Virus record (IMG/VR): IMGVR_UViG_3300046170_000502
Location: 96,001-160,000 of that record
Strand: one strand, 5' to 3'
Length of the DNA: 64,000 bases
DNA from: a virus
The stretch's first letter is position 1. Each line of letters opens with the position of its first letter. The notes under the pieces are model-generated. The model searched no databases, was not told where the DNA came from, and saw nothing but the letters and a program-made list of their open reading frames with translations. The translations under genes and the position numbers were made by a program. Positions 4,433 through 30,165 of this stretch are shown in pieces.

Positions 4433-7357
4433 ATGAGCGCAGATAAAGTACCAAAACAAGGGGCTGATGGACTGGCGGATATCAAGGGGCTATTGAGACC
4501 TAGGAGGACCAAGCTCACAAAAAAAAGATACGGTGGGCATAATGATGGTGGTTATGTTTTGATTGAGGAAGTTTTTAATCAAGCGGAAGTTGTTTATTCT
4601 TACGGCATAGATGATTCGGAGGATTCGGATTGTTTTGATTTAGCGTGTTCTGATTTGAATAAAAAAGTGTTCATGTTCGATGGCACAATTAATAATTACG
4701 AAACAAAGCGGGCGAATATGTTTTTTAAGAAAGAAAACGTTACTGAAGATAATTTCGAATCACACCTACTCTTGCAAAATAATATCGAGAAAGATAATAT
4801 GATCCTTAAGATGGACATAGAGGGCTGCGAATATCCTGTTATAGAGAAAAATATTAATTTAATTTCTAAATGCTTTAGCATGGTTTGCGTGGAATTTCAT
4901 GGATTAAATAACCCAGAATTTTATAGATATAAAGATAAGGGGTTCGTAATAAGGTTATTGCTTGAGAATTTTGATATTTTCCATATGCACGCAAATAACT
5001 GGGTCGAAAGAAAACATTTGATTCCAAATGTTATTGAGATATCTTTTGTAAGGAAGGGTTTTTGCTTAGAAGAGCTAGATGGCCCTTACCCAGTCAAGGG
5101 GTTAGATTTTCCTAATTGCGTCGGTAGAGAAGATTATAAACTAGATTGGTGGATCGAGTCTCAGTTTGATTTTCCAAATATAAAGGACATAAAACCTGCG
5201 CAAATCACAAAAAAAATACACTTATCCTGGAGGGATAAAAATGTATTAAACGGAGACTATCAATTAATTAATAAGGGGGCAAGGAAATTGCAATTATTGA
5301 ATCCTGACTGGGATGTGGTTGTATATGATGACGAAGACATTAACGGGCTACTTAGGGACACTATAGGAAAAGAAAACTGGGACTTAATTAAGGATAAGAA
5401 GATTACCGAAAAAACAGATCTCTGGAGGTTAATAAAAACTTACAAGGAGGGTGGAATGTATATTGATATTGATCGATATATAGATACTCCAATATCTGAA
5501 ATTATGAATACAAGCACTTCAATGGTTTTACCAACTTTTCAGGATGTTGATTTTTCACAAGACTTTATATTGACTTGCCCCAAGAACCCTATAATTGGTA
5601 GAGCTATAGTTAATAATTTAAATTATAGAAAGAAGGGTAAGTCTTTGTTTTTTATGGCCGTACAGTCTTATATGCATTCTGTTAGTGAAGTTTTAACTGG
5701 AAGTAAGATTGACAGAGGGGATAATGAGGAGTACTTCAATAAAGTTAGAAGTGGGATCCAAAACTGCGAATATCTCGAGACCTACAAGGAGACTGGCCCA
5801 AGCGATCATATATTATATAGAAACTTGAATAATAATTTTGATATGAATATATTTGAGAAAGATAAGGCTGATTTTTATAACGAAGAAAATGTTGTTCATT
5901 GGAATGCTGATACTAGAAAAAAACACGAATCGATTAAATTGCAATCTAGTCTTGAGTATGATATCAAGAAATATTATTCTAATTTAGGCGAGAATTTTAT
6001 TTTTGAAGGAGGAGATAATTCTGTTGAGAATGAAGAACAATCTAAAAGATTAATTAAATTATGCGAAGAATATAATTGCAAAAATATTATGGAAATCGGA
6101 TTTAATGCAGGTCATTCTGCGGATTTGTTTTTAAGTATGAATAATGATATTAAATTAACTAGCTTTGATATTGGCGTTCATAAGTATGTTGATTATGGTA
6201 AGAAGTTTATAGATAATAAATATCCAGGCAGACATAACTTAATATTGGGTGATAGCGCAAGAACAGTAAAGGAATTTTATAAAGAAAATCCAGGTATTAA
6301 ATTTGATTTAATTTTTATTGATGGAGATCATAGTGAAATCGGAGCAATTTCAGATTTATTTAATTGCCAAAAATTAGCTGACAATAAAACGGTAGTTGTT
6401 ATGGATGACACACGCAATAATCATCCAATGCATTCTTGGAATATTAATGTGAATCGCGCTTGGAGAAAATGTATCTCAGCTGGAATGATAGATGTTATAG
6501 ATTCCGAGGATTATGATAAATCTGATTCTTGCCCAAGGGGCCAGAGCTGGGGAAATTATATTATAGAGAAAGATGAAAATCTGTTGGTTGCCGTTGAGCA
6601 ATTTAAAAAAATGAAGTATCATTGGGGAGATTTGGTTGACGATGATAGCTTGAAGTTTATTAGCGATCAACTAGAGCAGCCCCAGTTAAGTAATAGGAGT
6701 TTTGATTGTTATTATCCTGGAGGTAAAATTGCAGTGGTTAGTTTATATACTGATGAAATAGCTGACTTCGCACACTACTCAGAAAAAAATATTCGACAAT
6801 ATTGCAAAAAACACAATTATACTTTTTATGTTTATCGTGATAAAATAGAAAAGAATTCTAGCCCAAATTGGTCAAAAGCAGGTTCGATATTGAATCATAT
6901 CAGTGATCATGAATATATTGTATGGATTGATTCTGATGCATTGATATTTGATAAAAATAAAAAATTTGAAACTATTATAGGTAAGTGCGCTAAAAATAAA
7001 TATATAATTGCATGCGAGGATATTGGTAAGAATTCAATGCTAAATTCGGGTGTTTTGATATTCAAGTCAGATAGTTATACTGAAAATTTAATAAAAAAAT
7101 GGAGAGACTTTGATGGCAATAAATCATCTCTTTACGCAAGCGGTGGGGATCAAGAAATTTTATGCAGAATCTTAAAGGCTAGTGATGGTTTTGGTTTTAA
7201 TAGGAAGGTGTTTCCTATGAGTGAATTTAATACAGATCCACGAATGATTGATGATGAAACTTTTATTGTTCATTTTATGGCATACCCTTCTCATTTGAAA
7301 AAAATTTTTATAAGGTATTTTGTTTCCAAAACAATTGATGACAGTGTATTAAGTTAA
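4433..7357 (+). CDS. Four-domain fusion: FkbM/Methyltransf_22-like + GT32 (DXD) + class I SAM methyltransferase + GT34-like
   Basis: GGHNDGGY/VYSYGI/LKMDIEGCEY; KKIHLSW/DLWRL/GGMYIDID; MEIGFNAGHSA/DLIFIDGDH; NWSKA/WIDSDA/NSGVLIFK/GDQEIL. Confidence 0.75.
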   Translation: MSADKVPKQGADGLADIKGLLRPRRTKLTKKRYGGHNDGGYVLIEEVFNQAEVVYSYGIDDSEDSDCFDLACSDLNKKVFMFDGTINNYETKRANMFFKKENVTEDNFESHLLLQNNIEKDNMILKMDIEGCEYPVIEKNINLISKCFSMVCVEFHGLNNPEFYRYKDKGFVIRLLLENFDIFHMHANNWVERKHLIPNVIEISFVRKGFCLEELDGPYPVKGLDFPNCVGREDYKLDWWIESQFDFPNIKDIKPAQITKKIHLSWRDKNVLNGDYQLINKGARKLQLLNPDWDVVVYDDEDINGLLRDTIGKENWDLIKDKKITEKTDLWRLIKTYKEGGMYIDIDRYIDTPISEIMNTSTSMVLPTFQDVDFSQDFILTCPKNPIIGRAIVNNLNYRKKGKSLFFMAVQSYMHSVSEVLTGSKIDRGDNEEYFNKVRSGIQNCEYLETYKETGPSDHILYRNLNNNFDMNIFEKDKADFYNEENVVHWNADTRKKHESIKLQSSLEYDIKKYYSNLGENFIFEGGDNSVENEEQSKRLIKLCEEYNCKNIMEIGFNAGHSADLFLSMNNDIKLTSFDIGVHKYVDYGKKFIDNKYPGRHNLILGDSARTVKEFYKENPGIKFDLIFIDGDHSEIGAISDLFNCQKLADNKTVVVMDDTRNNHPMHSWNINVNRAWRKCISAGMIDVIDSEDYDKSDSCPRGQSWGNYIIEKDENLLVAVEQFKKMKYHWGDLVDDDSLKFISDQLEQPQLSNRSFDCYYPGGKIAVVSLYTDEIADFAHYSEKNIRQYCKKHNYTFYVYRDKIEKNSSPNWSKAGSILNHISDHEYIVWIDSDALIFDKNKKFETIIGKCAKNKYIIACEDIGKNSMLNSGVLIFKSDSYTENLIKKWRDFDGNKSSLYASGGDQEILCRILKASDGFGFNRKVFPMSEFNTDPRMIDDETFIVHFMAYPSHLKKIFIRYFVSKTIDDSVLS

Positions 7358-7395: not shown

Positions 7396-10300
7396 ATGGC
7401 AAAAAATAAAGTATATTTAATAAAAAGTGGAGAAAACTCTTTTGTAGAAGAAACTGAGGGTGTTTTAGGTATTAGCGGTGGGAAGTTTGGTTTCGGGACA
7501 ACTAGCCCAGAGGCCGATGTACATATCAGCGGAAATACTCAAATAGATGGAGATCTCTCAGTTAAGGGAAATTTCTCAACAGTTAATCAAACAACCGTAC
7601 AAATTGACGATAAGAATATTGAATTGGGGTTTGTCGATTCGCCAACCAATTTAACTGCAGACGGTGGAGGCATCACTCTAAAAGGAGCTACCGATAAGAC
7701 TATAATTTGGCAAAATTCAAACTCGGCTTGGAATTTCAGCGATAGCATACATATTGATTCAGAGAAAAGTATTTCAACAAAAGAAATAAAAGGTGTGAAT
7801 TTCTCAGGATTAAACTTGTTGGATGAAAGTGGTAGTGGAGTTTTTATAAAAAGCGGAAGAATTGGGGTTTTGAATGATTCCCCAGCTTATGATTTAGATG
7901 TCTCTGGAAGTGGTAATTTTTCCGAAGGTCTTTATGTAGATGGAAATGCTGTTGTTACCGGTGAGGCTGGGAAGTGGAGAGACGGGGTGAGCGCTGGAGA
8001 TATCACTTATACAGGAGGTAAAGTTGGTATAAGTAATGATTCCCCAGCTTATGATTTAGATGTCTCTGGAAGTGGTAATTTTTCCGCAGGTCTTTATGTA
8101 GATGGAAATGCTGTTGTTACCGGTGAGGCTGGAAAGTGGAGAAGTAATAGTAATATTGGCGAAATAATTTATACAGGAGGTAACGTTGGTATAAGTAATG
8201 ATTCCCCAGCTTATGATTTAGATGTCTCTGGAAGTGGTAATTTTTCCGCAGGTCTTTATGTAGATGGAAATGCTGTTGTTACTGGTGAGGGTGGAAAGTG
8301 GAGAGACGGAGTGAGCGCTGGAGATATCACTTATACAGGAGGTAACGTTGGTATAAGTAATGATTCCCCAGCTTATGATTTAGATGTCTCTGGAAGTGCT
8401 AATTTTTCCGCAGGTCTTTATGTAGATGGAAATGCTGTTGTTACTGGTGAGGGTGGAAAGTGGAGAGACGGAGTGAGCGCTGGAGATATCACTTATACAG
8501 GAGGTAACGTTGGCATCGGAACAGATAACCCAATTAGAGATTTTTACGTAGATGGAGACGCTCGTATCGATGGGGATCTAGAGGTTAACTCTCAATTTAA
8601 AGTCGGTCAATATGGGGCCATTGGAGATTCGCAACCTATCGCTCACGGAGATATCATGAAGTGGGATTCCACAAATTCAAAATGGTCAGTAGGTTCAAAT
8701 ATTCCTGGTGGACTAGTAACGGGAGAGGTTCCCTTAGGGTTTATTCAAGCTTTGCCTAGCGGCAGTTCAATTTACTCAATATCATTTGTTGAAGAATACG
8801 GAGCTATACCAAGTATTTCTACAGATTTACAGATAGAAGGAGAGGGAGGTATTATTCCTTATGTATTATCAGGAGTTTCCGAAAGTGGTTATAATTTAGT
8901 TTTTTCGAGGGAAATCCCTAATAATAATTATAGAGTTCATACGACATTTGGTGGCAGGCCAGTTTACTGGAATACGGGATCCAGCGCCAGCGTTAATTAT
9001 GAGGATGGGGATGTAAATATACTTCGGGATTTAACTGTTAGTGGTAATTTAACTGTGGATGGCACTCAGTTGATCGTTAATACTGAAACAATCAAACTTG
9101 AAGATCATAACATTGAAATCGCTTCAAACGCTACTTATGATTCGATTTCCGACGCTGGAATTTCTTGGGGGACGGATCCACTTGGGGGCGTTTCCCCTGT
9201 TTCTTTAACCTATACTTATGGACAAGGTTTTTCTTTCGGTGGCGGTAGTGTAGGTATTGGTACTACGAATCCTTCATCTAGATTAACAGTAAATCCTGGT
9301 AGTGTTACTAATGCTGGAACTTGGTCAGATTCTGCTTTAGCGATAACTAATCCAACAAATATTGGCTCTTATTCCCAAATTTCTTTTGGTTATACTGTCG
9401 GAACAATAAATGCAGCTGCTTATTTGGGGTTCGTGTCTACGAATCAAGGCTCTAATGGTTATGGAGATCTAGTATTTGGCACTCGCTCCGTAAATACAGA
9501 CACTGCGCCTACTGAGAGAATGCGCATAAATTCTAACGGCAACGTAGGTATTGGTACTACGAATCCTGATGCTCCACTTACCATATCAAGAACGCATACC
9601 AATGGTTCACCTGGTATAGATAATTTTATTACCTTAGATGCCACCGAAAAGTCGGGCCAAAATTTAGAGGCTGGTGATGGGGTGGGTATACTCTTTAAAG
9701 TTCCTGTCGAGTCACAATCAAGTAGTGTCGGAGCAAGAATCGCAGCTGTTCGTGAGGGCGGAACTGAGAATGCTACAAGCACAGAGTTAGTATTTCAAGT
9801 TTCTCAACAAGATGAAACACTTGATGAAGCAATGCGCATTGATCGCGACGGCAACGTAGGTATTGGTACTACGAATCCTGAGAGCGTGCTACAGGTTCAA
9901 GGGAAACAAGAATACGCTAATTCAGCAAGTGATTTAGCCACGTCTGTTACAAAAAGTGCTTTGCGAGTTCGCGGAAGTAATAACTCGAGTGACTCTCTCT
10001 GGATGGGAGTTGAGAATGTAAACGCGAATCCATATATACAAGGCTCAAATGGAAGCGGTAGTAATGCAAAAAATATTTCAATTAATCCGTTTGGCGGCAA
10101 CGTAGGTATTGGTACTACGAATCCTGGTGCTAAATTAGATATATCAAGTTCATCTACAAATATTGATATTTTAAGCACTGATGGTGATTTTGTAAATATT
10201 AGAAACCAAAATTCTACAACCAACAACTTCTCTTCAATAGGGTTTTTTGATAGTAGTAATGAATTAACGAGTAGGATTGCTTCTATTAGAGGAACTTCCA

Positions 10301-11373
10301 ACGGGCGTGGTTCTCTAGCGTTTATAAACGGACAAACATCGGATGGTTTAAAGGTAGAAATGATGCGTATCACCTCCGACGGCAACGTAGGTATTGGTAC
10401 TACGAGTCCTGGTGCGAAGTTGGATATAGCTGTTTCCTCAGGTGACGCCGCCTTATTAGTAAGAAATGCTACACAAACATTAAGGTTTGATCAAAATAGT
10501 ATAAGAACAAGCACTAGTAATGATTTAGGTATATTTACTAGTGGAAATTCAGGTCAAATATATTTAAAACAAAGTAATGGTAATGTAGGTATTGGTACTA
10601 CGAATCCTAGTGCGAAACTAACTCTCCCAGCAAGCGAATCTATTTCGTTTGATGACAGTTCTGGAAATAGTAAATGCGAAATTAATTCAGGTGCAGCAGG
10701 AACTCTACAACTACAAGGAGATTTGGACTTAAGATTTAAAACAACTGTTGAAGCAATGCGTATCAACTCCAACGGCAACGTAGGTATTGGTACTACGAAT
10801 CCTAGTGCGGGTCGGTTAGATGTGTGGCAAACAGAGAGTACCTCGGATTCGTGTATTAAAACTGTAAGACCTGGGACTGCAGAGAGAACACATTTAGCTT
10901 TTTATAACGCTAACGGTATTGTCGGCACTATAGAGGCAGGTGGTACTACTACATCATACAATACTAGCTCAGACTACAGATTAAAAGAAAATGTTGTCGA
11001 AGTTGATAATGCAATAGAAAGAGTTAATAAGCTTAAACCTTGTAGGTTTAATTTTATAGCAGATCCAGAAAAAATTGTTGATGGATTCTTGGCTCATGAA
11101 GTTCAAGAAGTTGTACCAGAAGCTATTTCCGGAGAAAAGGATGCCGTTAGAGAAGAAGAGTGCGAAATTGCGCCAGCAGAATTAGATGATGATGGTAATG
11201 TTGTTACTGAAGCCGAAATGGGAACGAAAGAAGTGCCTGAATATCAAGGTATAGACCAAAGTAAACTTGTACCTCTTTTGACCAAAGCAATCCAAGAACA
11301 ACAGAAACTAATTGAATCTCAACAATCAAAAATCAACGACTTGGTATCTCGCGTTGAATATCTAGAATCTTAA
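7396..11373 (+). CDS. Long tail fibre 1 with GNVGIGTTNP modules and C-terminal peptidase-S74 chaperone
   Basis: 54-aa tandem repeats, a lectin-like domain, 7 DNA-conserved GNVGIGTT motifs, and C-terminal SDYRLKEN...GFLAHEV...IDQSKLVPLLTKAIQEQQ. Confidence 0.85.
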   Translation: MAKNKVYLIKSGENSFVEETEGVLGISGGKFGFGTTSPEADVHISGNTQIDGDLSVKGNFSTVNQTTVQIDDKNIELGFVDSPTNLTADGGGITLKGATDKTIIWQNSNSAWNFSDSIHIDSEKSISTKEIKGVNFSGLNLLDESGSGVFIKSGRIGVLNDSPAYDLDVSGSGNFSEGLYVDGNAVVTGEAGKWRDGVSAGDITYTGGKVGISNDSPAYDLDVSGSGNFSAGLYVDGNAVVTGEAGKWRSNSNIGEIIYTGGNVGISNDSPAYDLDVSGSGNFSAGLYVDGNAVVTGEGGKWRDGVSAGDITYTGGNVGISNDSPAYDLDVSGSANFSAGLYVDGNAVVTGEGGKWRDGVSAGDITYTGGNVGIGTDNPIRDFYVDGDARIDGDLEVNSQFKVGQYGAIGDSQPIAHGDIMKWDSTNSKWSVGSNIPGGLVTGEVPLGFIQALPSGSSIYSISFVEEYGAIPSISTDLQIEGEGGIIPYVLSGVSESGYNLVFSREIPNNNYRVHTTFGGRPVYWNTGSSASVNYEDGDVNILRDLTVSGNLTVDGTQLIVNTETIKLEDHNIEIASNATYDSISDAGISWGTDPLGGVSPVSLTYTYGQGFSFGGGSVGIGTTNPSSRLTVNPGSVTNAGTWSDSALAITNPTNIGSYSQISFGYTVGTINAAAYLGFVSTNQGSNGYGDLVFGTRSVNTDTAPTERMRINSNGNVGIGTTNPDAPLTISRTHTNGSPGIDNFITLDATEKSGQNLEAGDGVGILFKVPVESQSSSVGARIAAVREGGTENATSTELVFQVSQQDETLDEAMRIDRDGNVGIGTTNPESVLQVQGKQEYANSASDLATSVTKSALRVRGSNNSSDSLWMGVENVNANPYIQGSNGSGSNAKNISINPFGGNVGIGTTNPGAKLDISSSSTNIDILSTDGDFVNIRNQNSTTNNFSSIGFFDSSNELTSRIASIRGTSNGRGSLAFINGQTSDGLKVEMMRITSDGNVGIGTTSPGAKLDIAVSSGDAALLVRNATQTLRFDQNSIRTSTSNDLGIFTSGNSGQIYLKQSNGNVGIGTTNPSAKLTLPASESISFDDSSGNSKCEINSGAAGTLQLQGDLDLRFKTTVEAMRINSNGNVGIGTTNPSAGRLDVWQTESTSDSCIKTVRPGTAERTHLAFYNANGIVGTIEAGGTTTSYNTSSDYRLKENVVEVDNAIERVNKLKPCRFNFIADPEKIVDGFLAHEVQEVVPEAISGEKDAVREEECEIAPAELDDDGNVVTEAEMGTKEVPEYQGIDQSKLVPLLTKAIQEQQKLIESQQSKINDLVSRVEYLES
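7873..8511 (+). repeat. 162-bp (54-aa) in-frame tandem repeat, ~4 copies
   Basis: AATGATTCCCCAGCTTATGATTTAGATG recurs at 7873, 8035, 8197 and 8359. Confidence 0.95.
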
Positions 11374-11386
11374 TAGAAAGAATAAA

Positions 11387-13850
11387 ATGAAAGACCTAAA
11401 CTCCGAGAACGCATTTTTTGAAAATGTTTCAACCGATAATTTAAATTTCAATAGTGTAAATAACGACACTCCTCAATCAGTTAATGATGTTCTCGCTTGG
11501 AACGGATCAAGTTGGGAAGTTAAGGCCGCCTCAGACCTTGGTGTCGGAGGAGGGGGTGGAGGAGGCTCTACGCCTTCTTCTTTTGTGTCGAATATTCCAG
11601 CTGGAGTTGAGAGTCATGCAATAACATATGGGCCTTTCAGCTCCACTCCAAAAATAGCTTCAAGTTTGGAAATAAATGGGGATGGAGAAATTATTCCATA
11701 TACTATGTCTGGAGTTTCAGCGACGGGATATCACGCAATATTTTCTGACGCAACTCCAAATGCAAACTATAATATTCATACCGTTTTCGGAGGGGAATCC
11801 GCAGGATCTAGTGGGGGAGGCCTAAGCTACAACGAAGTTGTTGTAACTGTATCAGGTGCAAAGTTTTATATCGACGGAACTCAACAGTTACAACTTTCGC
11901 TTCAAAGGGGGCTTTCTTACAGATTTGACCAAAGCGATAGTACTAATTCTGGGCACCCTATCAAATTTAGCACTCTTAGTGACGGAACGCATAATACACC
12001 TGCAGGTAGTGAGTATACTGCCGGAATAGTTTATTCTGGTACTCCAGGCTCTGCTGGAGCTTATACAGAAGTAACTTTAAGCCAGAGTTCTCCTAACTTG
12101 TATTATTACTGCGAAAATCATCCTGGAATGGGGGGCAGTGCCCTTGGCGAAATAATTCTTAAGGCTAATGGCAACGTAGGTATTGGTACTACGAATCCTG
12201 CTGGTACATTAGAATTAAATAGCAGCAGTACTGATACTAACTTTTATATGGGCGGTACTCCAAGTGCTGGCTCAAGAGAGGCTTGGAGGTTTCAAGCTGA
12301 AGGAGATATTTTACATATAGGTCAATCTAAAAGTAGTTATGCTAAATATATGACTTTTTTCGGTAGTAAGGTAGGTATTGGTGCTACGAATCCTTCTCAC
12401 GATTTAACTCTTGGATCAGGAACTTCCGCTGGAACTGCTTCAACAAGGTTAAAAATATACAGAGGCGCAGATGATCCAGGACAAAATCTTGAAATGGGGT
12501 ATGATCATATCACCGTTACGCGAGATGCAAATACATTAGCAAATCCACAATCGACTTTTTCAATCAAACAAAAAGGTAGTGATGGTGAAAGAACAGCAAT
12601 ACATATCAACACCAACGGCAATGTAGGTATTGGTACTGTGAATCCTGGAAATATTTTAAATATCTATGATAGTGCAGCAGGTTCCGCGGGAACATCTGCT
12701 AGCCCTGATTGGTCTGACTCATTATTCCTTCAAAGAAATATTCCAAGCAATTATCAAGGAACAAGAATATTATTTGCGCATGGTAAGGCATCTATCGGTG
12801 GATTTAGGGAAGATAATACTGAGGACGGTGCGCATCATTTGGCATTTTACACGGGTGGAAATATTAGCGGGATTAACGAAGCAATGCGTATTACAAACAC
12901 TGGCGACGTATTGGTGGGGGCGACGAGTATAAATTCAGGATTAGGTGGAGTAGCTCAGTTTGAAGCTTCAAATCCAACCAATGGCGGTATAATTATTAAT
13001 ACTCAGAACTCTAATTTGAATAATTATTGCCGCTTGATGTTTACCGTAGCTAATACTGTAGGTAATGAAGGTTTAATCCGATATAACAGTAACGATTACC
13101 ACATGTCTTTTTGGACTAAAGCTCAAGAAAGAGTCCGTATCAAACAAGATGGCAACGTAGGTATTGGTACTACGAGTCCTAATACATCATTTCATGTAAG
13201 TTCTCAAGTAGGTAATGGTGATGGTACAGTGTTTGTAGAAAATACCTTGGCAACTTATGGAATGGGGTTAAAGGTCAAGGGCGGTGGAAATGTTGACAAT
13301 GAAAGGTTTGCATTAAAAGTTCAAAATGCTGCTGGGGATGATATTCTTTTCGCTCAATCAAAAACAGGCAATGTCGGCATTGGTACTACGGATCCTAGGT
13401 TCATATAAATTATATGTAAATGGTAGTGTTTTTGCCAGTTCATATTACCCTACTTCTGACGACCGCGTCAAACACAACGAACAACCTATCGTTGGCGCAC
13501 TTGAAACACTCTCTAAAATTACACCCAAGAAGTACATCAAAACAACCGAAATGTACGATGTCGATCATGACTTTAAACTTGATTCTGACGGCAATCCGAT
13601 TGATGAGAATGGTGAATCAGTTGAACATCGCATCGAAGCAGGTGTAATCGCGCAACAAGTATTAACCGTTGATGAATTAGCATTTGCGGTTACCCCAGAA
13701 GGTGTAGACGAAGATGAAAATGCTACCAGACCACACGGCCTCGATTACAATAGTTTATTTACTTATGCAATCGCCGCAATTCAAGAACAACAGAAACTAA
13801 TCGAAGACTTGAGGGGCGAAGTAGAGGTTTTAAAAAAACAAATAAATTAA
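11387..13850 (+). CDS. Tail fibre 2 (lectin-like + cupredoxin-like + GNVGIGT modules + S74 chaperone), interrupted by a 1-nt frameshift near 13398
   Basis: ORF 11387-13408 ends GTTDPRFI*. Removing one G at 13398-13399 gives TTDPSSYKLYVNGSVFASS, matching fibre 3 and running into the S74 domain of ORF 13326-13850. Confidence 0.8.
13414..13777 (+). repeat. 364-bp direct repeat, copy 1 (S74 chaperone cassette)
   Basis: Identical by eye to 15547-15910 (offset 2133). Alternative-frame ORFs 13420-13647 and 15553-15780 translate identically. Confidence 0.9.
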
Positions 13851-13856
13851 AAACAA

Positions 13857-15974
13857 ATGAAAGATTTTAAAACAAAAAACGGGTTCTTCACAGGTAATGT
13901 AGGGGTTGGTACTACGAGTCCAATATCACCATTAACAGTACAGGGCCAAAACGACACTACATTCGATAATATTGGTAATGTAACTTTTCTCGGAACAGAC
14001 GCTTACAATTCAAATGCTGGTGCTGGTATTATTTTTGGAGGTAGATACAATTCAGGCAATGATGTAACCACCTTTGGTCAAATATCGAGTATAAAAGAAA
14101 ACAATACCGATGGAGACTATAAAGCAACTTTAACCTTTGGAACTCGTGACGGTTCGACTTCAACAATGGAAAAAATGCGCATCAACTCCAGCGGCAACGT
14201 AGGTATTGGTACTACGAATCCTACATCTCCAAACTCAGTTAATAAATGTTTACACATATATGATGCTGACCATTGTTCACTTGCCCTGAGTGACGCAACT
14301 AATACTTGGGAAATTGTTTCAAATAGCGCTTTTACAATTAGAGAAGGTGTGGATACTAGGCTTAGCATAGACACATCTGGCAACGTAGGTATTGGTACTA
14401 CGAATCCTGTAAGTAAATTTGAAATTTATGGAACTGGAGACTTACTTAGATTATATTCTACTAATGCTGGAGCTGGTGGAGCTCAAATAGATTTAATCCA
14501 TGATTCAAGTTCTCCAGCAGATAATGATTCTGCTGGTTTAATTAATTTTCTAGGTAGAGATGCAGATTCCAATTTAACAACTTGGGCCTCAGTGAGAGGA
14601 ATTGTTAGAGATTTAAATAGTAAGGGCGGAGATATTACTTTCCTTAATAGATTAGGCAGTAATTTTGAAGAAAATATGCGTATCACCTCCAGCGGCAACG
14701 TAGGTATTGGTACTACGAATCCTGGTGCAACTCTCCATGTTAAGGCAAGTGATGATTCTACGAATGCATTGGCTTTCTGGGTAGTAAATAAGGCTCACAA
14801 TAATTCAATTATTTCTGCATATGAAAATGGTGATGTGTCACTTGGTACATTGACCTACAAAGATACATCAGGCAACGTAGGTATTGGTACTACGAGTCCT
14901 ATTGCTAGATTAAATATAGCAAATACAATAGCAGATTCTAATGTTTTCACTATATCGAGGGCGGAAAATGCTACTGTCTCCTTGTTGAGTATTTTTCAAG
15001 ATAGTAGTTGGGATATAGGGGGAGGTCAAGGAAGCGGCATCGCTCACATTAATACAAATAATAGAAATTTAGCAATAACGACATCCAGTGACCAAAGTCT
15101 TGATGGGGGAATATTTATTAACGAATCTGGCAACGTAGGTATTGGTACTACGAGTCCTGGTGCTAGATTAGACATATTAGGCCCCAACTCTACAGGTACT
15201 TTCTTTTCGGCGATGAATGCAGGCGCAGGTGGTACCGAGTTTAAAAGAGTTAATTCGAACTCTTATCCCTACAATCACTTCCTTTTTTACAATGGCCGCG
15301 TAGGTATTGGTACTACGAATCCTGGTTACAACCTTGATGTGCAACAATCTGATGGTAGTTGGGCTTCAAGAATATACAATACTGGTTCCAGTGGTGATGC
15401 CGCAGGTTTGCTTGTTAGGACAGATGCTACTGCTAGCGATAACGCATCAGCTTTCGGTATTTTTACCGATGGTGCATATAAGTTTCTTGTAAAAAGCACC
15501 GGCAACGTAGGTATTAGTACTACGGATACTAGCTCTTATAAATTACATGTAAATGGTAGTGTTTTTGCCAGTTCATATTACCCTACTTCTGACGACCGCG
15601 TCAAACACAACGAACAACCTATCGTTGGCGCACTTGAAACACTCTCTAAAATTACACCCAAGAAGTACATCAAAACAACCGAAATGTACGATGTCGATCA
15701 TGACTTTAAACTTGATTCTGACGGCAATCCGATTGATGAGAATGGTGAATCAGTTGAACATCGCATCGAAGCAGGTGTAATCGCGCAACAAGTATTAACC
15801 GTTGATGAATTAGCATTTGCGGTTACCCCAGAAGGTGTAGACGAAGATGAAAATGCTACCAGACCACACGGCCTCGATTACAATAGTTTATTTACTTATG
15901 CAATCGCCGCGATCCAAGAACAACAGAAACTAATCGAAGATCTTAAAGCTCGAATCGAAACTTTAGAATCTTAG
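13857..15974 (+). CDS. Tail fibre 3 with 8 GNVGIGT-delimited modules and S74 chaperone
   Basis: The motif begins at residue 13. C-terminal SDDRVKHNE...GVIAQQV...LDYNSLFTYAIAAIQEQQ. Confidence 0.85.
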   Translation: MKDFKTKNGFFTGNVGVGTTSPISPLTVQGQNDTTFDNIGNVTFLGTDAYNSNAGAGIIFGGRYNSGNDVTTFGQISSIKENNTDGDYKATLTFGTRDGSTSTMEKMRINSSGNVGIGTTNPTSPNSVNKCLHIYDADHCSLALSDATNTWEIVSNSAFTIREGVDTRLSIDTSGNVGIGTTNPVSKFEIYGTGDLLRLYSTNAGAGGAQIDLIHDSSSPADNDSAGLINFLGRDADSNLTTWASVRGIVRDLNSKGGDITFLNRLGSNFEENMRITSSGNVGIGTTNPGATLHVKASDDSTNALAFWVVNKAHNNSIISAYENGDVSLGTLTYKDTSGNVGIGTTSPIARLNIANTIADSNVFTISRAENATVSLLSIFQDSSWDIGGGQGSGIAHINTNNRNLAITTSSDQSLDGGIFINESGNVGIGTTSPGARLDILGPNSTGTFFSAMNAGAGGTEFKRVNSNSYPYNHFLFYNGRVGIGTTNPGYNLDVQQSDGSWASRIYNTGSSGDAAGLLVRTDATASDNASAFGIFTDGAYKFLVKSTGNVGISTTDTSSYKLHVNGSVFASSYYPTSDDRVKHNEQPIVGALETLSKITPKKYIKTTEMYDVDHDFKLDSDGNPIDENGESVEHRIEAGVIAQQVLTVDELAFAVTPEGVDEDENATRPHGLDYNSLFTYAIAAIQEQQKLIEDLKARIETLES
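15547..15910 (+). repeat. 364-bp direct repeat, copy 2
   Basis: Matches 13414-13777. Confidence 0.9.
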
Positions 15975-17191
15975 AAGTCGCTTAATGCAACTCTTTTCCA
16001 TAAGTCGCCACTCACGCAAATATACATATAATCATTATCATATGTAATTTCTCCTTTTGATCCTATTGAATTACTATTTTCTGGAGTATTATAATTTTGA
16101 AAATTTAATTTATTAAAACTTCCTGATACATTTGATATTGTATTATTTTCTGGCTTATAAAAACTATATAAGTCTCCACTAGTGGTAGTTAAATTATTTT
16201 CGAGCTTTGTTATTTTGTCTCCAGCTTTCCATTTTTTTTCAGTAGAGTCCCATTGTATAGAATTATTTTCTTGACTTGGGTTTACTCCCCCTATTGATCC
16301 AGAGATATTTATTCCTGAAGCATTAATTCCAGAGGGAAAAGTTATTTCGCCCTGCTCTGTAGAAGAAATACTTGTGTTTCCAATGTATAACGAATTGTTA
16401 GATAGGTATAAATGCCTTATTTTATATTCCGCAGAGCCAATATCATATGTTGAGTTTGTATCTGGTATAATGTGTGCGTCCAGGTTGCCATCGAGGTAGT
16501 TGGCTACATCTGTGTCGCTGTAAGTTGTTAAGTTTGCGCTTAAATTTTGCACGAATCCTGAGATTTGACTTATATCCCCTGTGGCGAGATCAACTTTTCC
16601 TGAGATTGTATTAAATCGTGAGTCATCAGAAACCTCTTCGTTGATAAGAACCTGAATGGCCCCTGAGATTTGACTTATATCCCCTGTGGCGAGATCAACT
16701 TTTCCTGAGATTGTATTAAATCGTGAGTCATCAGAAACCTCTTCGTTGATAAGAACCTGAATGGCCCCTGAGATTTGACTTATATCCCCTGTGGCGAGAT
16801 CAACTTTTCCTGAGATTGTATTAAATCGTGAGTCATCAGAAACCTCTTCGTTGATAAGAACCTGAATGGCCCCTGAGATTTGACTTATATCCCCTGTGGC
16901 GAGATCAACTTTTCCTGAGATTGTATTAAATCGTGAGTCATCAGAAACCTCTTCGTTGATAAGAACCTGAATGGCCCCTGAGATTTGACTTATATCCCCT
17001 GTGGCGAGATCAACTTTTCCTGACAGTGAGTTTATTTCTGACGAGTAGTTGATGCCCCCTTGAGTAATGTTAGTTACATAGCTTTCTGTAGCGACTGGTT
17101 GCCCACTTATCGTTATTTGCCCGGTTATTGAAACCTCGTTAGCTTCTAAGGAGTTAAAGATACCACTATCTGTTTTGAAAATCGCTGACAT
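15971..17191 (-). CDS. Fibre-like virion protein with 35-aa coiled-coil repeats
   Basis: Unit SGKVDLATGDISQISGAIQVLINEEVSDDSRFNTI. YDIGSAEYKIRHLYLS and C-terminal GSKGEITYDNDYMYICVSGDLWKRVALSDF are fibre-type motifs. Confidence 0.7.
   Translation of the reverse strand: MSAIFKTDSGIFNSLEANEVSITGQITISGQPVATESYVTNITQGGINYSSEINSLSGKVDLATGDISQISGAIQVLINEEVSDDSRFNTISGKVDLATGDISQISGAIQVLINEEVSDDSRFNTISGKVDLATGDISQISGAIQVLINEEVSDDSRFNTISGKVDLATGDISQISGAIQVLINEEVSDDSRFNTISGKVDLATGDISQISGFVQNLSANLTTYSDTDVANYLDGNLDAHIIPDTNSTYDIGSAEYKIRHLYLSNNSLYIGNTSISSTEQGEITFPSGINASGINISGSIGGVNPSQENNSIQWDSTEKKWKAGDKITKLENNLTTTSGDLYSFYKPENNTISNVSGSFNKLNFQNYNTPENSNSIGSKGEITYDNDYMYICVSGDLWKRVALSDF
16557..17023 (-). repeat. 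Perfect 105-bp tandem repeat, ~4.4 copies
   Basis: CCTGAGATTTGACTTATATCCCC recurs at 16557, 16662, 16767, 16872 and 16977. Confidence 0.95.
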
Positions 17192-19963: not shown

Positions 19964-22549
19964 CTATTCGGATATCACGAATGTGGCTGGATTTGACGTG
20001 GAGCTATTTGCAGCTCTATTTAATTTATCTAAATTAAAGACGTAATCTGCGTTGGGGTTAACTAATCCATTTTGGTCGCAAACTGTAAATTTATTGTTAA
20101 CGTCAAAAGAATTGTTTAATTGTGTTCCGTTGGCGTATGACTGGTATGTGTATGACGTACCTCCGTTAGGAGCCGTACCCCCTTCTGATACATTCTCAAA
20201 CGTAATATTACTTGGGTTTATTGAGGTGGTACCTATTGGTGCTAAACCTGCGCCCAAACTATTTGGTGAGGCTATAACAGTTCTTGAGGTAAAACCTTCG
20301 AGAGTGTATGTGGGGTTGCTTGATATTGAAGTAGTTTCTATATTTGCTAAATTAAAAGCTGACACCTGCCAATCAAACGTTCCTTTTGAGTCTGCATCGG
20401 ATACCGTTAAGGTGTAAGCATTACTAGTTTTTCCAGAACCAGAAGCTGTTTGAGTGAGCTGGGAGGGGTTTATTTGGGAAGCGTCTACATTTAGTGTTGG
20501 TGAATTCAGCATTAGTTGACTTGTTGTTAAATTGAAATTATCACTGGTTGGAGATGTTGATGTTTTTATCTTTAAAGCTAGGTTATTTATATTTATTGTC
20601 AAAGGCGTGTTTGCTATATTTACAGTTTTATAAGATTCTAGGACTGCGCCGTTCGAGTCTCTGGTAGCTGTTATTCTTAGATTGCTTTGGCCGCCATCTC
20701 CATCTACATTATATCCTCCAGAAAGGTAATCCACGCTTTTATTTGTTTCAAATAAGGATGGGTTACTTATTGTTATTTGATTGTTTGGTGATGTGTAGCT
20801 TATTAGGTCATGATTTATTACTATATTTTCTACGCTAGCTGATTCCGTAGACTTTATAGCTTGTTGGTTGGCTGGGTACGTTACTGGGCCAAAGCTTATA
20901 GATGGAACTGTAGAGTTATGAATTTCCGCTTTATCAGCCGTTTCAACTGGATCACTAATCGTTCCAAAATTGTTTATAGCCTTAAAGGTTGCACTTTGGT
21001 TCCCGTCTCTAGCTGAAGAGCCAAGCGGCCCAAATACATCAATTGGTACTGAGAATTCGAAGTTACCATTAGGTAGTGAGCTTTTCGAATAGTTTGAAGA
21101 AAATGAGGATTGACTTCCATCGCTAACTCCTAGGTTTTCGACCGATATAGATATATCATTTATAGAAACTCCGTTTCCGTTTATTTCTATTTTTGAATTA
21201 ACTACATCTCCAGCCTTAATTTGAGATGAACCTATAATATGAGGTGCGGAGGAAGAACTTGCTAGTGAATCTAATTGTGTTGAAACTATTACTGGGCCAT
21301 TGGCGATTTTAACTTTTACTTTTTTTGTGTCAGTGGCTCCATTACCGGTTCTTACTGCGTAAATTTCTATGTTATCATTATTGTTATATATCCCGTTGAC
21401 ATAATCGACAGTTTTCGTTGCCTCAAAATCAATTTGATTTATCATTGATATCTGTGGGTCTAATATTTCATAACTAACGAAATCTATTCCGTCTACCCAG
21501 TTGGATATTGAGTTTGAGAAGGTGGTTGATTCTCCTTCCCTTAAGCCATCTGACCTGCCGTTGTAAGATGATGGGTCTGATGCGGAGATTGTCGGATAAA
21601 CTTGATCTAAGTCTCTGGTTCCACTATTATGACCAAAGTCAGAAGACTCTTTTAGGTCTCCTGTGCTACCAAATGAATCTACCGCTTGAACCGCTACAGA
21701 TAAGGAGCCCTGTCTGTTCGAAATATCAACTGGTATTGTAGCTCTATATAAACCATCTACGCTTTGTAATGAATAGTTTGCATAATTCACTTCTTCAGCC
21801 AAGCCAAAATCATGAACTTTAATTAAATCGACATCATTTCTATCAAAATCTACATAAATATTGATAGAGTCCCCTTGTTTTAAATGGCTTGAACCTAAGG
21901 TCTCCCCGGGTTTGGCTGTTGCATTTTGAATTTCATCTATTAATACGTTAACTGGAGTTGGCCCTCCTCCTAACTCTAATAGGGGTAATACGGAGGTTCT
22001 CCCGTTAGCTGAGCCAGTTATCCCTGTTAGACCTTCTGCGTTTAAGTTGTCGATGAAGCCCATAAATCTTCTAGTATCTGTACCTAGCTGAGATATGTTA
22101 GATTCGGGTATTTTTTGACCATTGATATAAGCTTCGCCCATGTACGTTTCATTTGGTCCGTCCCATTTGAAATAAACCTTTAGGTCTTCTGCTGTAGCTA
22201 CAGTAACTCCGGATAGAAAAGTGTTTGGATCTGGGGTGTTATAGAATGTTTTTTGAGTAACTCCGATATTATCTTCGATATCCGAGAAAAAGCAAAACTC
22301 AGATGCCCCAGATTGGATTTGTGATACTGATGTTCCTAATCTCGAGACATCGACCCCGTCAAGAGTTAAACCGCTTACGAAATTACCACTAATAAATTCA
22401 ACACTATCAGAAGTTCTCACATTCTGATTCATTGAGAATTCTACGTCTCCAATATATAAATTATCAAAAACACCCGTAGCCCAAGCCTTGTTTACTCTAC
22501 CTACGCTACCTTCTCCGCTATTTCGTGGTACTAAATTTCTGGTTGCCAT
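19964..22549 (-). CDS. Large beta-rich virion structural protein
   Basis: 861 aa, S/T/N/G-rich Ig-like composition. The N-terminus MATRNLVPRNSGEGSVG...W is fibre-like. GTGTA motif 9 nt upstream. Confidence 0.6.
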   Translation of the reverse strand: MATRNLVPRNSGEGSVGRVNKAWATGVFDNLYIGDVEFSMNQNVRTSDSVEFISGNFVSGLTLDGVDVSRLGTSVSQIQSGASEFCFFSDIEDNIGVTQKTFYNTPDPNTFLSGVTVATAEDLKVYFKWDGPNETYMGEAYINGQKIPESNISQLGTDTRRFMGFIDNLNAEGLTGITGSANGRTSVLPLLELGGGPTPVNVLIDEIQNATAKPGETLGSSHLKQGDSINIYVDFDRNDVDLIKVHDFGLAEEVNYANYSLQSVDGLYRATIPVDISNRQGSLSVAVQAVDSFGSTGDLKESSDFGHNSGTRDLDQVYPTISASDPSSYNGRSDGLREGESTTFSNSISNWVDGIDFVSYEILDPQISMINQIDFEATKTVDYVNGIYNNNDNIEIYAVRTGNGATDTKKVKVKIANGPVIVSTQLDSLASSSSAPHIIGSSQIKAGDVVNSKIEINGNGVSINDISISVENLGVSDGSQSSFSSNYSKSSLPNGNFEFSVPIDVFGPLGSSARDGNQSATFKAINNFGTISDPVETADKAEIHNSTVPSISFGPVTYPANQQAIKSTESASVENIVINHDLISYTSPNNQITISNPSLFETNKSVDYLSGGYNVDGDGGQSNLRITATRDSNGAVLESYKTVNIANTPLTININNLALKIKTSTSPTSDNFNLTTSQLMLNSPTLNVDASQINPSQLTQTASGSGKTSNAYTLTVSDADSKGTFDWQVSAFNLANIETTSISSNPTYTLEGFTSRTVIASPNSLGAGLAPIGTTSINPSNITFENVSEGGTAPNGGTSYTYQSYANGTQLNNSFDVNNKFTVCDQNGLVNPNADYVFNLDKLNRAANSSTSNPATFVISE

Positions 22550-27367: not shown

Positions 27368-27679
27368 ATGAAGAAATTTATACAAGTTCCAGTAGAAATT
27401 CAAAACGACGTAATAGATGGTAAACTAATAGGAAACGACTTATTAATTTATAACTACCTAGTAATTAAAGCTGGACACGGAAAGCCGATTTACTATTCAA
27501 ACGAGAAGATAGGGGAAGACTTAGGTGGAATGTCCTACGGGAAGATATCTGCAAGCTTAAATAGACTAATGAAAGCTAAACATATAAAAAGAAGAAAAAC
27601 TTGCAATAAAACAGAAACACAGCTAAGGACAGTAATAAGGGATTCTAATAACATTTTAATAAGAGGGCAGAAGAAATGA
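27368..27679 (+). CDS. Winged-helix DNA-binding protein (replication-initiator N-terminal/HTH-like)
   Basis: LLIYNYL...YYSNEKIGEDLGGMSYGKISASLNRLMKAKHIKR. Confidence 0.55.
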   Translation: MKKFIQVPVEIQNDVIDGKLIGNDLLIYNYLVIKAGHGKPIYYSNEKIGEDLGGMSYGKISASLNRLMKAKHIKRRKTCNKTETQLRTVIRDSNNILIRGQKK

Positions 27680-28389
27680 AAACAGCTTTATGTTTTAGTG
27701 GTAAATTAGGCAAATGGGAGCTAACTAAAAAATCAATTCTTGAAAAAATAATAAAGCCCTTAAAACCTGATATATTTCTTAGTACATGGAAAAATGAAAA
27801 TTTTAAAGAATTTATCAGCTTCTATAAACCCAAAAAAATAGAAATATTAAATTTCGAAGACTGTAAAAAAGATATTTTCGGAAAAAACTGCAACCAGAAA
27901 CTAGGCTTAAGACCTATGTGTTATGGCATGTCCAGGAGCTTCAGCCTAATCTCAAGAAAATATAAGGATTACGATCTAATAATTAGATTAAGACCGGACC
28001 TAGAGATCATCGATTCACTTAAGAGGCATGAGATAAAAACCAATAAATACATAAAACTACCATTTTACGAAAGCCATTCGATATACAATCATGAAAAAGA
28101 GCTATCTAAGGGCATGTCATTTAGTTTCGTTTTTGAAAAATCAATATTACCCAATCAAATCAATGACCAGATAGCTTTGGGCCCACCTCAATTAATGAAG
28201 CAGTACATGAATTGCTTTAATTTAATCGACCACGCAGTGGAGTTCCTAAAGAATAACGGCTACCCAAGTTACATGTCAGAGGTTCCAGAGAGTGTATTAA
28301 CTATGTGCTTAAAGCTTAACAACATTCATTACGCAAGGTTGTCGGGCACTTCTGACTTCGGTAACCTAAAGGTAAAACTAACTAAATGA
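27676..28389 (+). CDS. Glycan-modification protein (MKxAxCxSG family)
   Basis: MKTALCFSG, DIFLSTW, YDLIIRLRPDL and INDQIALG form a pattern common in polysaccharide loci. Confidence 0.55.
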   Translation: MKTALCFSGKLGKWELTKKSILEKIIKPLKPDIFLSTWKNENFKEFISFYKPKKIEILNFEDCKKDIFGKNCNQKLGLRPMCYGMSRSFSLISRKYKDYDLIIRLRPDLEIIDSLKRHEIKTNKYIKLPFYESHSIYNHEKELSKGMSFSFVFEKSILPNQINDQIALGPPQLMKQYMNCFNLIDHAVEFLKNNGYPSYMSEVPESVLTMCLKLNNIHYARLSGTSDFGNLKVKLTK

Positions 28390-29762
28390 TTAAGCTTATA
28401 ATATTCGACCTGGATGGTGTTTTAGTTGAATCAAGAAACCTTCACTACATTTGCCTAAATAAAGCCTTGGAAGAAATTGACCCAAGCTTTTCAATAAACA
28501 AAGAAGAGCATCTCTGCAAATACGACGCTCTAACCACAACACAAAAACTCAATAAACTAACAAAAGAAAAAGGTCTCCCCAGAAACCTCCACGATAAAGT
28601 CTGGAGGATCAAGCAAGAAAAAACAATTGATCAAATCAATTCTTACGACAAGGATCAAAGGATAATATCTATCTTAAAAAAACTAAAACAAAAGGGTTAT
28701 AAGTTAGCGTGCGCAACAAACTCTATCAGGGAAACTTCTAAATTAATTTTAATTAAAAAAGGTTTCTTCGACTATATAGATTTACTATATTCTAACGAGG
28801 ACGTAAACAACCCAAAGCCTAGCGCAGAGGTCTATATGAGGTGTATGATAAAGCTCGGCGTAAACCCTGACGAGTCAATCATAATTGAAGATTCGCACAT
28901 AGGCCGTAAGGCGGCAATCAGGAGTGGAGCTCACTTATGCGCAGTAAAGGATTCGAGTGACTTGACTTTTGATAAAATTAATAATACTATAGTTGATGCA
29001 GATAAAAAAACGCAAATTTCACCAAAATGGCAAGGAGGTAAAATGAATGTTCTGATACCGATGGCAGGTGCCGGTTCAAGGTTTGAGCGGGCAGGGTATA
29101 CCTTTCCGAAGCCTCTTATAGATATAAACGGTAAACCTATGATACAAAGGGTTGTCGAGAATTTAAATATTGACGCAAGGCATATATTTATAGTTCAAAA
29201 GCACCACTATGAAAAATATTCATTAAAACATACATTGAATCTAATATCACCGAATTGCGAGATAGTTCAAGTGGAAGGAGTAACCGAAGGGGCAGCCTGC
29301 ACGACACTACTAGCAAAAAAGTTTATAAACAATGAAGAACCCTTAGTGCTAGCAAACTCTGATCAATACGTAGACTGGGACAGTAATCAATTCATGTATT
29401 CATGCATGGCTGACAACATAGACGGATCGATACTAACCTTCAATTCAACTCACCCAAAGTGGAGTTACGCCAAGTTAAATAACGAGGGGCTCGTCATTGA
29501 AGTCGCAGAGAAAAAACCGATTAGTAATAATGCTACAGTAGGAATATACTTCTGGAAGAGGGGCCTAGATTACGTACGTTGCGCGGAATCTATGATAGAA
29601 AAAGATATAAGAGTTAATAATGAATTCTACGTTTGCCCTACTTACAATGAGGCATTACTTATTGGAGGGAGAATAAAAACTTTCCATATTGAAAAAATGT
29701 GGGGACTCGGAACCCCAGAAGATCTTGAGGCATTTCTTAAGCATGATCCTTGTAGCTCATAG
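28386..29762 (+). CDS. HAD-family phosphatase fused to nucleotidyltransferase/GT-A domain
   Basis: FDLDGVL, KPSAEVY, IIEDS; then LIPMAGAGSRF, PKPLIDING, EKKPIS, NNEFYVCPTYN and GLGTPEDL. Confidence 0.85.
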   Translation: MIKLIIFDLDGVLVESRNLHYICLNKALEEIDPSFSINKEEHLCKYDALTTTQKLNKLTKEKGLPRNLHDKVWRIKQEKTIDQINSYDKDQRIISILKKLKQKGYKLACATNSIRETSKLILIKKGFFDYIDLLYSNEDVNNPKPSAEVYMRCMIKLGVNPDESIIIEDSHIGRKAAIRSGAHLCAVKDSSDLTFDKINNTIVDADKKTQISPKWQGGKMNVLIPMAGAGSRFERAGYTFPKPLIDINGKPMIQRVVENLNIDARHIFIVQKHHYEKYSLKHTLNLISPNCEIVQVEGVTEGAACTTLLAKKFINNEEPLVLANSDQYVDWDSNQFMYSCMADNIDGSILTFNSTHPKWSYAKLNNEGLVIEVAEKKPISNNATVGIYFWKRGLDYVRCAESMIEKDIRVNNEFYVCPTYNEALLIGGRIKTFHIEKMWGLGTPEDLEAFLKHDPCSS

Positions 29763-30165
29763 GGGAAATATCAACGGGCCAAACCCGGAAAAAGAAAACT
29801 CAATAGAGTATATAGAAAGTGCAATCAAGCAAGGTTTTGATGTCGAAATAGACCTATGGGCCAAAGAGAAGCTTTGGCTGGGTCACGACAAGCCCCAGTA
29901 TGAGTGCCCAACAGAATTTCTAATAAAAAACAGCAACAAACTCTGGATTCATTGTAAAAATCTAGAAGCTATGGATATACTCGCCGAATTTAGAACATTG
30001 AACTTCTTCTGGCACGAGTCTGATGATTTCACATTAACTTCGAAAAAATTCATATGGACATATCCGGGCAAAATGGTTTGCAATAAAAGCGTACTAGTAG
30101 TAGAGGATGCTAGGCAATACTCGGGGCAGATATGTTTTGGATTATGCTCTGATTATTTAAGGTGA
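29743..30165 (+). CDS. Glycerophosphodiester phosphodiesterase-like protein
   Basis: MILVAHRGN...ENS...GFDVEIDLW...LGHD...WIHCKN. ATG at 29743 preferred. Confidence 0.75.
   Translation: MILVAHRGNINGPNPEKENSIEYIESAIKQGFDVEIDLWAKEKLWLGHDKPQYECPTEFLIKNSNKLWIHCKNLEAMDILAEFRTLNFFWHESDDFTLTSKKFIWTYPGKMVCNKSVLVVEDARQYSGQICFGLCSDYLR

Follow-up and report, generated by a model that had tools for sequence, protein, structure and literature searches.

Why do three adjacent tail fibre genes of a phage repeat one short DNA sequence, down to its silent sites, at the borders of coding segments that are otherwise unrelated? This question is raised by a stretch of 64,000 nucleotides (nt), positions 96,001 to 160,000 of IMG/VR record IMGVR_UViG_3300046170_000502 (hereafter the window), which is part of an uncultured marine myovirus-like phage. 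The three genes (F1, F2 and F3) encode tail fibres with C-terminal S74 chaperone domains, and are interrupted at intervals by a repeat of about 30 nt, here called the anchor; the segments between anchors are called modules. An earlier note on this DNA had proposed that the repeat acts as a recombination anchor for modules moved in frame. This proposal is supported by breakpoints located at the repeat and by reordered modules in related contigs, and the modules are probably exchanged by homologous recombination at the repeat, both within and between phages.

Anchor repeats in the fibre genes

The anchor core (GTAGGTATTGGTACTACG) was found in 20 copies at no more than two mismatches, 15 of them exact, all on the + strand from 9250 to 15524; no match to the core was found in 100 dinucleotide shuffles. 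The full 30-mer (GGCAACGTAGGTATTGGTACTACGAATCCT), which encodes GNVGIGTTNP (consensus G-N-V-G-I-G-T-T-N/S-P), is exact in eight copies and carries one mismatch (AAT to AGT) in four. These counts reproduce those made earlier, and every one of the 20 copies lies in frame inside F1, F2 or F3.

Seven anchors are located in F1 (7396–11373, + strand, 1325 amino acids (aa)): anchor 1 at 9244–9273 (GGTAGT start, core exact), anchors 2, 3 and 4 at 9538–9567, 9850–9879 and 10096–10125 (all exact), anchor 5 at 10381–10410 (AGT), anchor 6 at 10579–10608 (GGTAAT start) and anchor 7 at 10774–10803 (exact). F2 (11387–13408, +, 673 aa) has its stop just past the last of five anchors, which are found at 12170–12199 (anchor 8, exact), 12365–12394 (anchor 9, a variant reading SKVGIGATNP), 12617–12646 (anchor 10, a variant with GTVNP), 13151–13180 (anchor 11, AGT) and 13367–13396 (anchor 12, a variant with GTCGGC and GAT, with a frameshift directly behind it). 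A decayed copy, GDVLVGATSI, is also present in F2 at 12902–12931. The eight anchors of F3 (13857–15974, +, 705 aa) begin with a variant at 13893–13922 (anchor 13, GNVGVGTTSP), followed by three exact copies at 14193–14222, 14379–14408 and 14694–14723 (anchors 14 to 16), two AGT copies at 14871–14900 and 15129–15158 (anchors 17 and 18), a copy with a GGCCGC start at 15294–15323 (anchor 19) and a last variant at 15501–15530 (anchor 20, GNVGISTTDT) ahead of the S74 part. All of these copies, the decayed one included, are on the + strand.

Within genes, successive anchors of the window are 165–534 nt apart, and periods in the clade span 138–834 nt. The window periods are all multiples of 3, as had been claimed, but the claimed upper limit of 315 bp missed the 534-nt period (12623 to 13157) that contains the decayed 21st copy. 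The 18 segments between window anchors encode 45–168 aa and, by both blastp and blastn, are mutually unrelated except at their edges, in agreement with the first description of the modules.

Codon usage within the anchor

The codon choice in the repeat was compared with codon usage in the window. ACG accounts for 10% of window Thr codons and for 19/19 in the repeat, and GGC for 17% of window Gly codons and for 16/19 in the repeat. Per-codon binomial P values against window usage ranged from 1e-5 to 1e-20, with the exception of the ninth codon (AAT), which was near expectation (P ~0.01). The related peptide near 8503 (GNVGIGTDNP), which had been put forward as an internal control, is present and is spelled in other codons (GGTAACGTTGGCATCGGAACA).

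The same test was carried out across the clade, where 20 related loci supplied 178 unique repeat units. When two units agreed in residue, they also agreed in codon at frequencies of 0.73–1.00 at codons 0 and +2 to +9, where 0.31–0.39 was expected. Codon +1 (the second codon; Asn, AAC/AAT) was chosen freely across the clade units, and at the equally conserved Leu at +13, four codons downstream, codon sharing was 0.27 observed and 0.27 expected. Freezing at silent sites is thus confined to codons 0 and +2 to +9, which gives a frozen tract of ~24–27 nt; the 30-bp DNA-invariant repeat of the earlier note stands as regards invariance and not as regards length, its second codon being free.

A pattern search at the peptide level detected the motif in more than 120 viral contigs. 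Other lineages carry the same peptide with free codons, in 31 copies in contig L115, 17 in L051 (15 DNA versions), 9 in L026 and 17 in L228; hardly any two copies there have the same spelling. Given these lineages and the codon test, neither codon bias nor the peptide accounts for the freeze, and the suspicion that codon bias might explain the invariance is rejected. The DNA-level invariance beyond codon bias is limited to one lineage. In two others the peptide has a partly frozen spelling peculiar to the lineage, namely GGTAATGTTGGTATAGGTACAACA in L086 (IMGVR_UViG_3300008262_004617) and GGCAACGTCGGTATCGGGACGACG in L046 (IMGVR_UViG_3300045789_000662), and these spellings suggest that freezing arose more than once. 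Since lineages freeze different versions or none, no particular sequence is needed.

Selection on translation was considered as an explanation for these codons, with fixed uncommon codons (GGC, AAC, GTA, ACG) slowing the ribosome at subdomain boundaries and thereby aiding folding. Several of the frozen codons are indeed minority codons in the window. However, pausing would keep codon rarity rather than exact identity, the same fibre architecture is found with free codons in other lineages, and the breakpoints at the tract described below would be left unexplained, so that this is the least probable of the explanations discussed here.

Outside viral contigs, the 24-mer occurred among bacteria and archaea in one contig of a Parcubacteria metagenome-assembled genome (MAG) only. 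This match was set aside as a chance codon coincidence because the 17 motif copies of the contig have free codons. The contig (L228, VMHB01000007.1, from a Parcubacteria-binned MAG) encodes a fibre-like protein, and may either derive from a phage or prophage that was placed in this bin or be the source of a cellular fibre of the MAT type discussed below. A second candidate anchor, the C-terminal helix motif AIQEQQKLIE in the S74 end, has a nearly identical spelling in all three fibres (11287–11316, 13776–13805 and 15909–15938). It was rejected on account of ordinary silent variation across the clade, which means that its homogenisation is within-genome only.

Breakpoints in related contigs

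Relatives were drawn from IMG/VR and from marine metagenome contigs, all of them metagenome assemblies. The exact 30-mer was present in 11 IMG/VR and 25 metagenome contigs, and the core in 108 contigs. When the window was aligned to these contigs, single modules were 91–97% identical and the adjoining modules were without any match. Followed base by base at 17 window boundaries, identity dropped from 82–100% to 20–47% across the 30-mer. For example, anchors 3 and 5 form the left and right ends of a 564-nt tract that is 97.5% identical to contig L001 (at anchor 5, 100% to the left and 33% to the right), and anchors 14 and 15 form the two ends of a module shared with L005 (100% within the module at either end, 43% to the left of anchor 14 and 42% to the right of anchor 15). 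Anchor 6 is the left end of a module common to L002, L267 and L276, anchor 16 is the left end of a module common to L001, L004 and L148, and anchor 7 marks a junction common to L002 and L005 on one side only.

A junction test was then applied to 472 junctions, using pairs from different contigs that shared a flank of 60 nt at an identity of at least 90%. Where the left flank was shared, the right flank was at background identity (20–49%) in 42/44 junction pairs, and in the reverse test (right flank shared, left flank unrelated) the count was 48/51. As a control, positions inside modules were compared in the same manner: in 21 of the 27 pairs the identity of 90% or more in the first 60 nt was retained in the last 60 nt, and one pair was unrelated. 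A second, partly overlapping metagenome set yielded 24/25 and 19/20. Nine high-scoring segment pairs of the window with at least 90% identity had 15 of their 18 ends within 26 nt of an anchor, zones that make up ~19% of the region (binomial P ~1e-8). Twenty-nine left-flank families had more than one right partner, and one family had five; contigs L148 and L225 are 98–99% identical as far as an anchor and divergent beyond it. The exchange junctions lie in or next to the anchor tract. A fixed module order with no breakpoints in the repeat had been named at the outset as the counter-case; among the relatives, order varies and breakpoints are found at the repeat.

Module pool and reordering

Comparison of the modules with related phages, as had been suggested, located the same modules in other orders and in other genes. 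Two modules that stand in the order A,B in L009 stand as B,A in L226, and three in the order X,Y,Z in L009 stand as Z,X,Y in L149. Modules from window F3 and F2 adjoin in one gene of L277, and modules from window F1 and F2 are mixed in L280. Between L160 and L172, the flanks are 96–99% identical and a single module between two anchors differs (202 vs 238 nt). The module pool of 20 loci comprised 153 modules in 129 families, 109 of which were seen once.

Identity at third codon positions was 0.93 for shared modules and 0.50 for backbone genes of the same contigs, which are 64–76% identical to those of the window. This contrast indicates that the exchange of modules was recent and lateral. Single modules have spread laterally in recent time, their order is permuted, and single cassettes are replaced. 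At the first and second codon positions, the identities were 0.94 and 0.95 for shared modules and 0.78 and 0.86 for backbone genes; the even spread over the three positions indicates that module proteins, unlike backbone genes, change about as fast as silent sites.

Within the window, 13416–13775 (~360 nt, +) is identical to 15549–15908 of F3 and is the only long duplicate. The identity starts ~20 nt past an anchor, which indicates a recent exchange between the ends of F2 and F3, and the tract is read as a recent copy or conversion between two fibre ends.

Recombination genes

No invertase geometry was found, all 20 window copies being direct repeats, as in the relatives. The earlier view that no invertase is involved is supported, with anchors all on one strand and no inverted crossover sites. 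No template/variable repeat pair, as expected of a diversity-generating retroelement, was found; within the window, none of the modules recurs in a closely similar second copy. Taken together, the direct copies, the lineage-specific frozen versions, and the lack of a template/variable pair and of invertase geometry argue for general homologous recombination rather than a site-specific system.

These data bear on the explanation that a dedicated sequence-specific nuclease or site-specific recombinase is at work, with the tract frozen as its recognition site. Near-perfect conservation of ~24 nt in more than 170 unique units is what such an enzyme would be expected to leave. On the other hand, L086 and L046 have different frozen versions and other lineages have none, the copies are all direct, and no recombinase or nuclease family was seen among the open reading frames (ORFs) scanned next to the fibres. 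A recognition site of this kind is accordingly considered highly improbable.

The protein at 34718–35532 (+) had been suggested as an annealing helper. This RAD52-like candidate is split in the window into two ORFs (34718–35074 and 35071–35532) and is intact in four relatives (G001–G004, 261–276 aa). The split is due to a 2-nt indel, which sits in a ~20-nt patch of clustered substitutions relative to the 99%-identical G001. The candidate belongs to a family of ~1900 unannotated metagenomic proteins, Tara samples included, and had no sequence match in Pfam, PHROG or PDB. A structural model of an intact relative reached a predicted local distance difference test score (pLDDT) of 71.6; an earlier model from four sequences (pLDDT 50) was too poor to use. 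The top Foldseek matches of the model were human RAD52 and yeast Mgm101, both weak (E 5e-3 to 6e-2, template modelling score 0.25–0.45). Alignment of the model to RAD52 using VIA-align gave Z scores of 6.2–6.5 over 123–128 residues, on a scale where chance arrangements fade at about 8, and the Atlas gave a Sak lead for the candidate (0.86). Of the suggested helper, a weak RAD52-like fold signal in the intact relatives remains and an intact gene in the window does not, and a role of this protein in exchange is a lead, not a finding. The relatives also encode a UvsX-like recombinase, and the exchange enzymes would be this recombinase and/or the RAD52-like candidate.

Structural interpretation of anchors and modules

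F3 matched the Bdellovibrio MAT fibre tips 8OND, 8OJN and 8OML using phmmer (E 4e-6 to 4e-3), the motif being the fixed point of the alignments. The repeated loop motif V-G-x-G/N-x-x-x-P-x-x-x-L is present in the window fibres and could be aligned to the MAT structures. As seen by crystallography, the motif in the MAT fibres folds into capping loops, all of the same structure, which delimit the trimeric beta-helix subdomains (PMC10769870). The structural reading was made by sequence match to these solved fibres because an intertwined trimer is unlikely to fold as a monomer. Given that the capping loops bound subdomains, each module is probably one self-contained shaft subdomain and the anchor probably encodes the standard joint between them, so that in-frame swaps would be tolerated.

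Proposed mechanism and its evaluation

The explanation favoured here, exchange of fibre modules by homologous recombination at the frozen tract within and between phages, is assigned a probability of roughly 0.78. The repeat would encode the loop motif G-N-V-G-I-G-T-T-N/S-P followed by x-x-x-L, bounding successive beta-helix subdomains of trimeric S74-type fibres. The ~24–27 nt kept identical in a marine myovirus-like clade would serve as portable homology, at which general homologous recombination could join any module to any other in frame. Exchange partners would be the paralogous fibre genes of one genome as well as co-infecting relatives, and subdomain cassettes would be replaced, added, lost and reordered, so that the fibre shafts form a combinatorial pool. 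Exchange recurring through the tract, together with heteroduplex conversion, would render the tract uniform across the shared gene pool, and mutated copies would leave exchange and then decay. Module swaps would be expected to change host-surface binding, and the arrangement may be favoured by selection for evolvability.

Several points weigh against this explanation. Variable positions at the edges of the tract do not clearly go with either flank, and the crossover cannot be located within it. Many assembled contigs end inside the fibre array, where assembly errors at repeats are possible, and exchange is deduced from assemblies, no recombination event having been seen directly. The window contains no UvsX homologue, and the RAD52-like candidate is frameshifted there by the 2-nt indel. 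A length of 24–30 nt lies close to the lower limit for efficient RecA-type recombination. Finally, the data fit equally a tract that is selected as an anchor and one that recombination at a conserved peptide has made uniform as a side effect.

The contig ends raise the question of an assembly artefact, in which short-read assemblers misjoin modules of co-occurring strains at the repeat. All relatives are assemblies, and the nearest record, G001 (40% shared 31-mers), begins shortly past the fibres, at position 18692 of the window. Nonetheless, identical arrays of 4–8 kb with up to 12 anchors recur at 99.9–100% in four samples (L164, L177/L223, L200 and L220), 34 junction combinations are each found in at least two contigs, and misassembly cannot produce frozen codons or third-position identities of 93% vs 50%. 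In addition, the exact tract of no more than 30 nt is below the usual final k-mers of such assemblies. An artefact of this type is judged very unlikely.

Passive concerted evolution would accept the mosaic as real and deny that it is an adaptation: the motif would be the only alignable DNA between modules and its uniformity a neutral by-product of recombination. Lineages that freeze different sequences or none, so that none is specifically needed, are in line with this, as are the drift of codon 2 and of edge positions and the existence of decayed copies. Yet the same tract is held across genomes with silent-saturated backbones, which needs homogenising exchange throughout the clade, and the modules, 153 in 129 families, form a very large pool with heavy mixing. 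Because these last two points speak for the intensity of exchange and not for selection, passive concerted evolution, which is thought unlikely, differs from homologous exchange at a frozen anchor only on adaptation.

A more far-reaching version of the exchange reading would make the frozen tract the operating site of a phage-encoded cassette-exchange system (RAD52-like annealing protein and/or UvsX-like recombinase) tuned to ~25-nt homology. It is offered tentatively and is doubtful at present. If true, such a system, kept by second-order selection, would supply a clade of abundant marine phages with a library of fibre shafts in many combinations and would be comparable in logic to bacterial antigenic-variation cassettes.

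Comparison with known systems

Motif-anchored fibre recombination is already established for T-even phages. According to Trojet et al. 2011 (PMC3157838, citing Tetart et al. 1996, 1998), the motifs concerned in distal tail-fibre and adhesin genes are the His boxes of gp37 and the glycine-rich motifs of gp38, and chimeric adhesins arise by exchange within or near short conserved motifs between hypervariable segments. As in T-even adhesins, conserved motifs flank variable segments in the window, with junctions in or next to the motifs. Unlike in T-even adhesins, a single anchor sequence recurs as many as 20 times in a genome, spread over three paralogous genes, its silent sites are frozen between genomes ~70% identical in backbone, the cassette is probably a whole fibre-shaft subdomain (45–168 aa) rather than the loop of a small adhesin, and both the number and the order of cassettes vary.

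The MAT fibres of Bdellovibrio bacteriovorus (Caulton et al. 2024, PMC10769870) resemble the window fibres in their motif-anchored similarity and S74 chaperone end. Mosaicism in that work is mainly at tip domains and at the protein level, and, unlike for the window locus, neither a frozen anchor at the DNA level nor cassette exchange is reported (PMC10769870). In receptor-binding proteins (RBPs) of Klebsiella phages, short high-identity "recombination hotspots" mark the boundaries of module exchange (bioRxiv 10.64898/2026.05.12.724579). Phage RBPs have also been described as shuffling their domains to this day, with recent mosaicism concentrated in fibres (Smug et al. 2023, PMC10684548). The Klebsiella hotspots are similar to the anchors in that short conserved stretches bound the exchanged modules. 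They are, in contrast to the iterated, silent-site-frozen array of the window, defined at the protein level, ~30 aa in length, located mostly in the first 100 residues and present once per protein.

The label "CRISPR-like" given to the array in the earlier note (CRISPR, clustered regularly interspaced short palindromic repeats) is apt for the layout, in which short identical direct repeats alternate with unique segments, and for nothing beyond it. Unlike in CRISPR arrays, repeats and "spacers" share one reading frame with periods of 138–834 nt, and the ORFs scanned included no member of a cas family and nothing resembling a cas neighbourhood. In antigenic variation of the Borrelia vlsE type, short direct repeats flank an exchanged variable cassette. 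The window shares with it coding cassettes that lie between short invariant direct repeats and are exchanged by recombination or conversion; it differs in having no silent archive or single expression site, the cassettes being part of expressed genes and the archive being the phage population.

The motif string was not found in any paper of the library searched. What is new here is that the anchor is iterated, that it stays frozen at silent sites between diverged genomes, and that it serves a pool of cassettes of one subdomain each. Fibres largely determine the host range of a marine phage, and their diversification in uncultured phages has mostly been inferred at the protein level. The locus supplies a rule at the DNA level (~25 identical bases at every subdomain boundary) along with a countable cassette pool, and sister lineages with the same fibre architecture and no frozen anchors serve as an internal contrast. 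The effect of sequence identity at the joint on the speed of fibre evolution is therefore directly testable. The anchor rule also explains breaks at fibre genes in assemblies of such phages, and chimeric fibres for laboratory phage-host systems might be spliced at the anchors, which suggest themselves as natural joints that the structure tolerates.

Fibre genes and surrounding genes

The window fibres showed similarity to annotated tail fibres (phrog_9942 and phrog_18345, E 4e-76 to 1e-39), and cyanophage and pelagiphage fibres matched them at 24–30% aa identity. F1 matched Peptidase_S74 (E 4.1e-10) in its C-terminal chaperone part and phrog_9942 tail fibre (E 4e-76), and F3, likewise with a C-terminal S74 chaperone, matched Peptidase_S74 (PF13884) at E 2.5e-5. 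A megablast search of cultured phage records returned no match to the fibre region, and exact-protein look-ups of F3 and of a neighbouring ORF returned none. The neighbouring ORF at 15971–17191, used as a query for relatives, gave distant partial matches only. The tail sheath gene is located at 19964–22549, and the nearest cultured relatives are only 28–32% identical in aa sequence.

At the end of F2 (13367–13420), one extra base is present right behind the last anchor (CCT AGG TTC, where relatives have CCT GGT TCA). As a result of this base after CCT, at ~13397, F2 ends at 13408 and the S74 chaperone part that belongs behind it (13398–13850, +) is out of frame; the ORF covering it in the other frame (13326–13850) matched Peptidase_S74 at E 1.3e-6. 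The extra base may reflect a genuine truncation, a join made imprecisely, or an error in the sequence. Contig L216 has the same F2-end module (93% identical) followed by another module in frame.

The N-terminal part of F1 contains tandem repeats of 162 nt, with three copies at 96–99% identity and a diverged fourth between 8000 and 8556. They encode a related motif, GGNVGISNDSP, in codons different from those of the anchor. In L162 and L190, contigs that are 99.9% identical elsewhere, the counterparts of this region differ in copy number.

A stand-alone ORF of 131 aa on the − strand (35524–35919) consists of an S74 chaperone domain only (Pfam E 1.8e-16) and also matched phrog_8215, baseplate wedge initiator (E 1.4e-32). 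The ~2.7 kb upstream of it (36169–38683, −) holds short ORFs only, with no family matches, and lies downstream of a 1620-aa gene at 38700–43562. The S74-only ORF and the short-ORF region may be fragments of a fourth fibre gene or of a baseplate gene.

The gene immediately upstream of the fibres (4433–7357) encodes a protein of 974 aa in which two methyltransferase domains are combined with two glycosyltransferase domains. More sugar-handling genes are found at 27676–34746 (HAD and nucleotidyltransferase, WavE-like, GT9-like and glycosyltransferase), and glycosylation of virion parts or of the host surface are candidate purposes for these genes.

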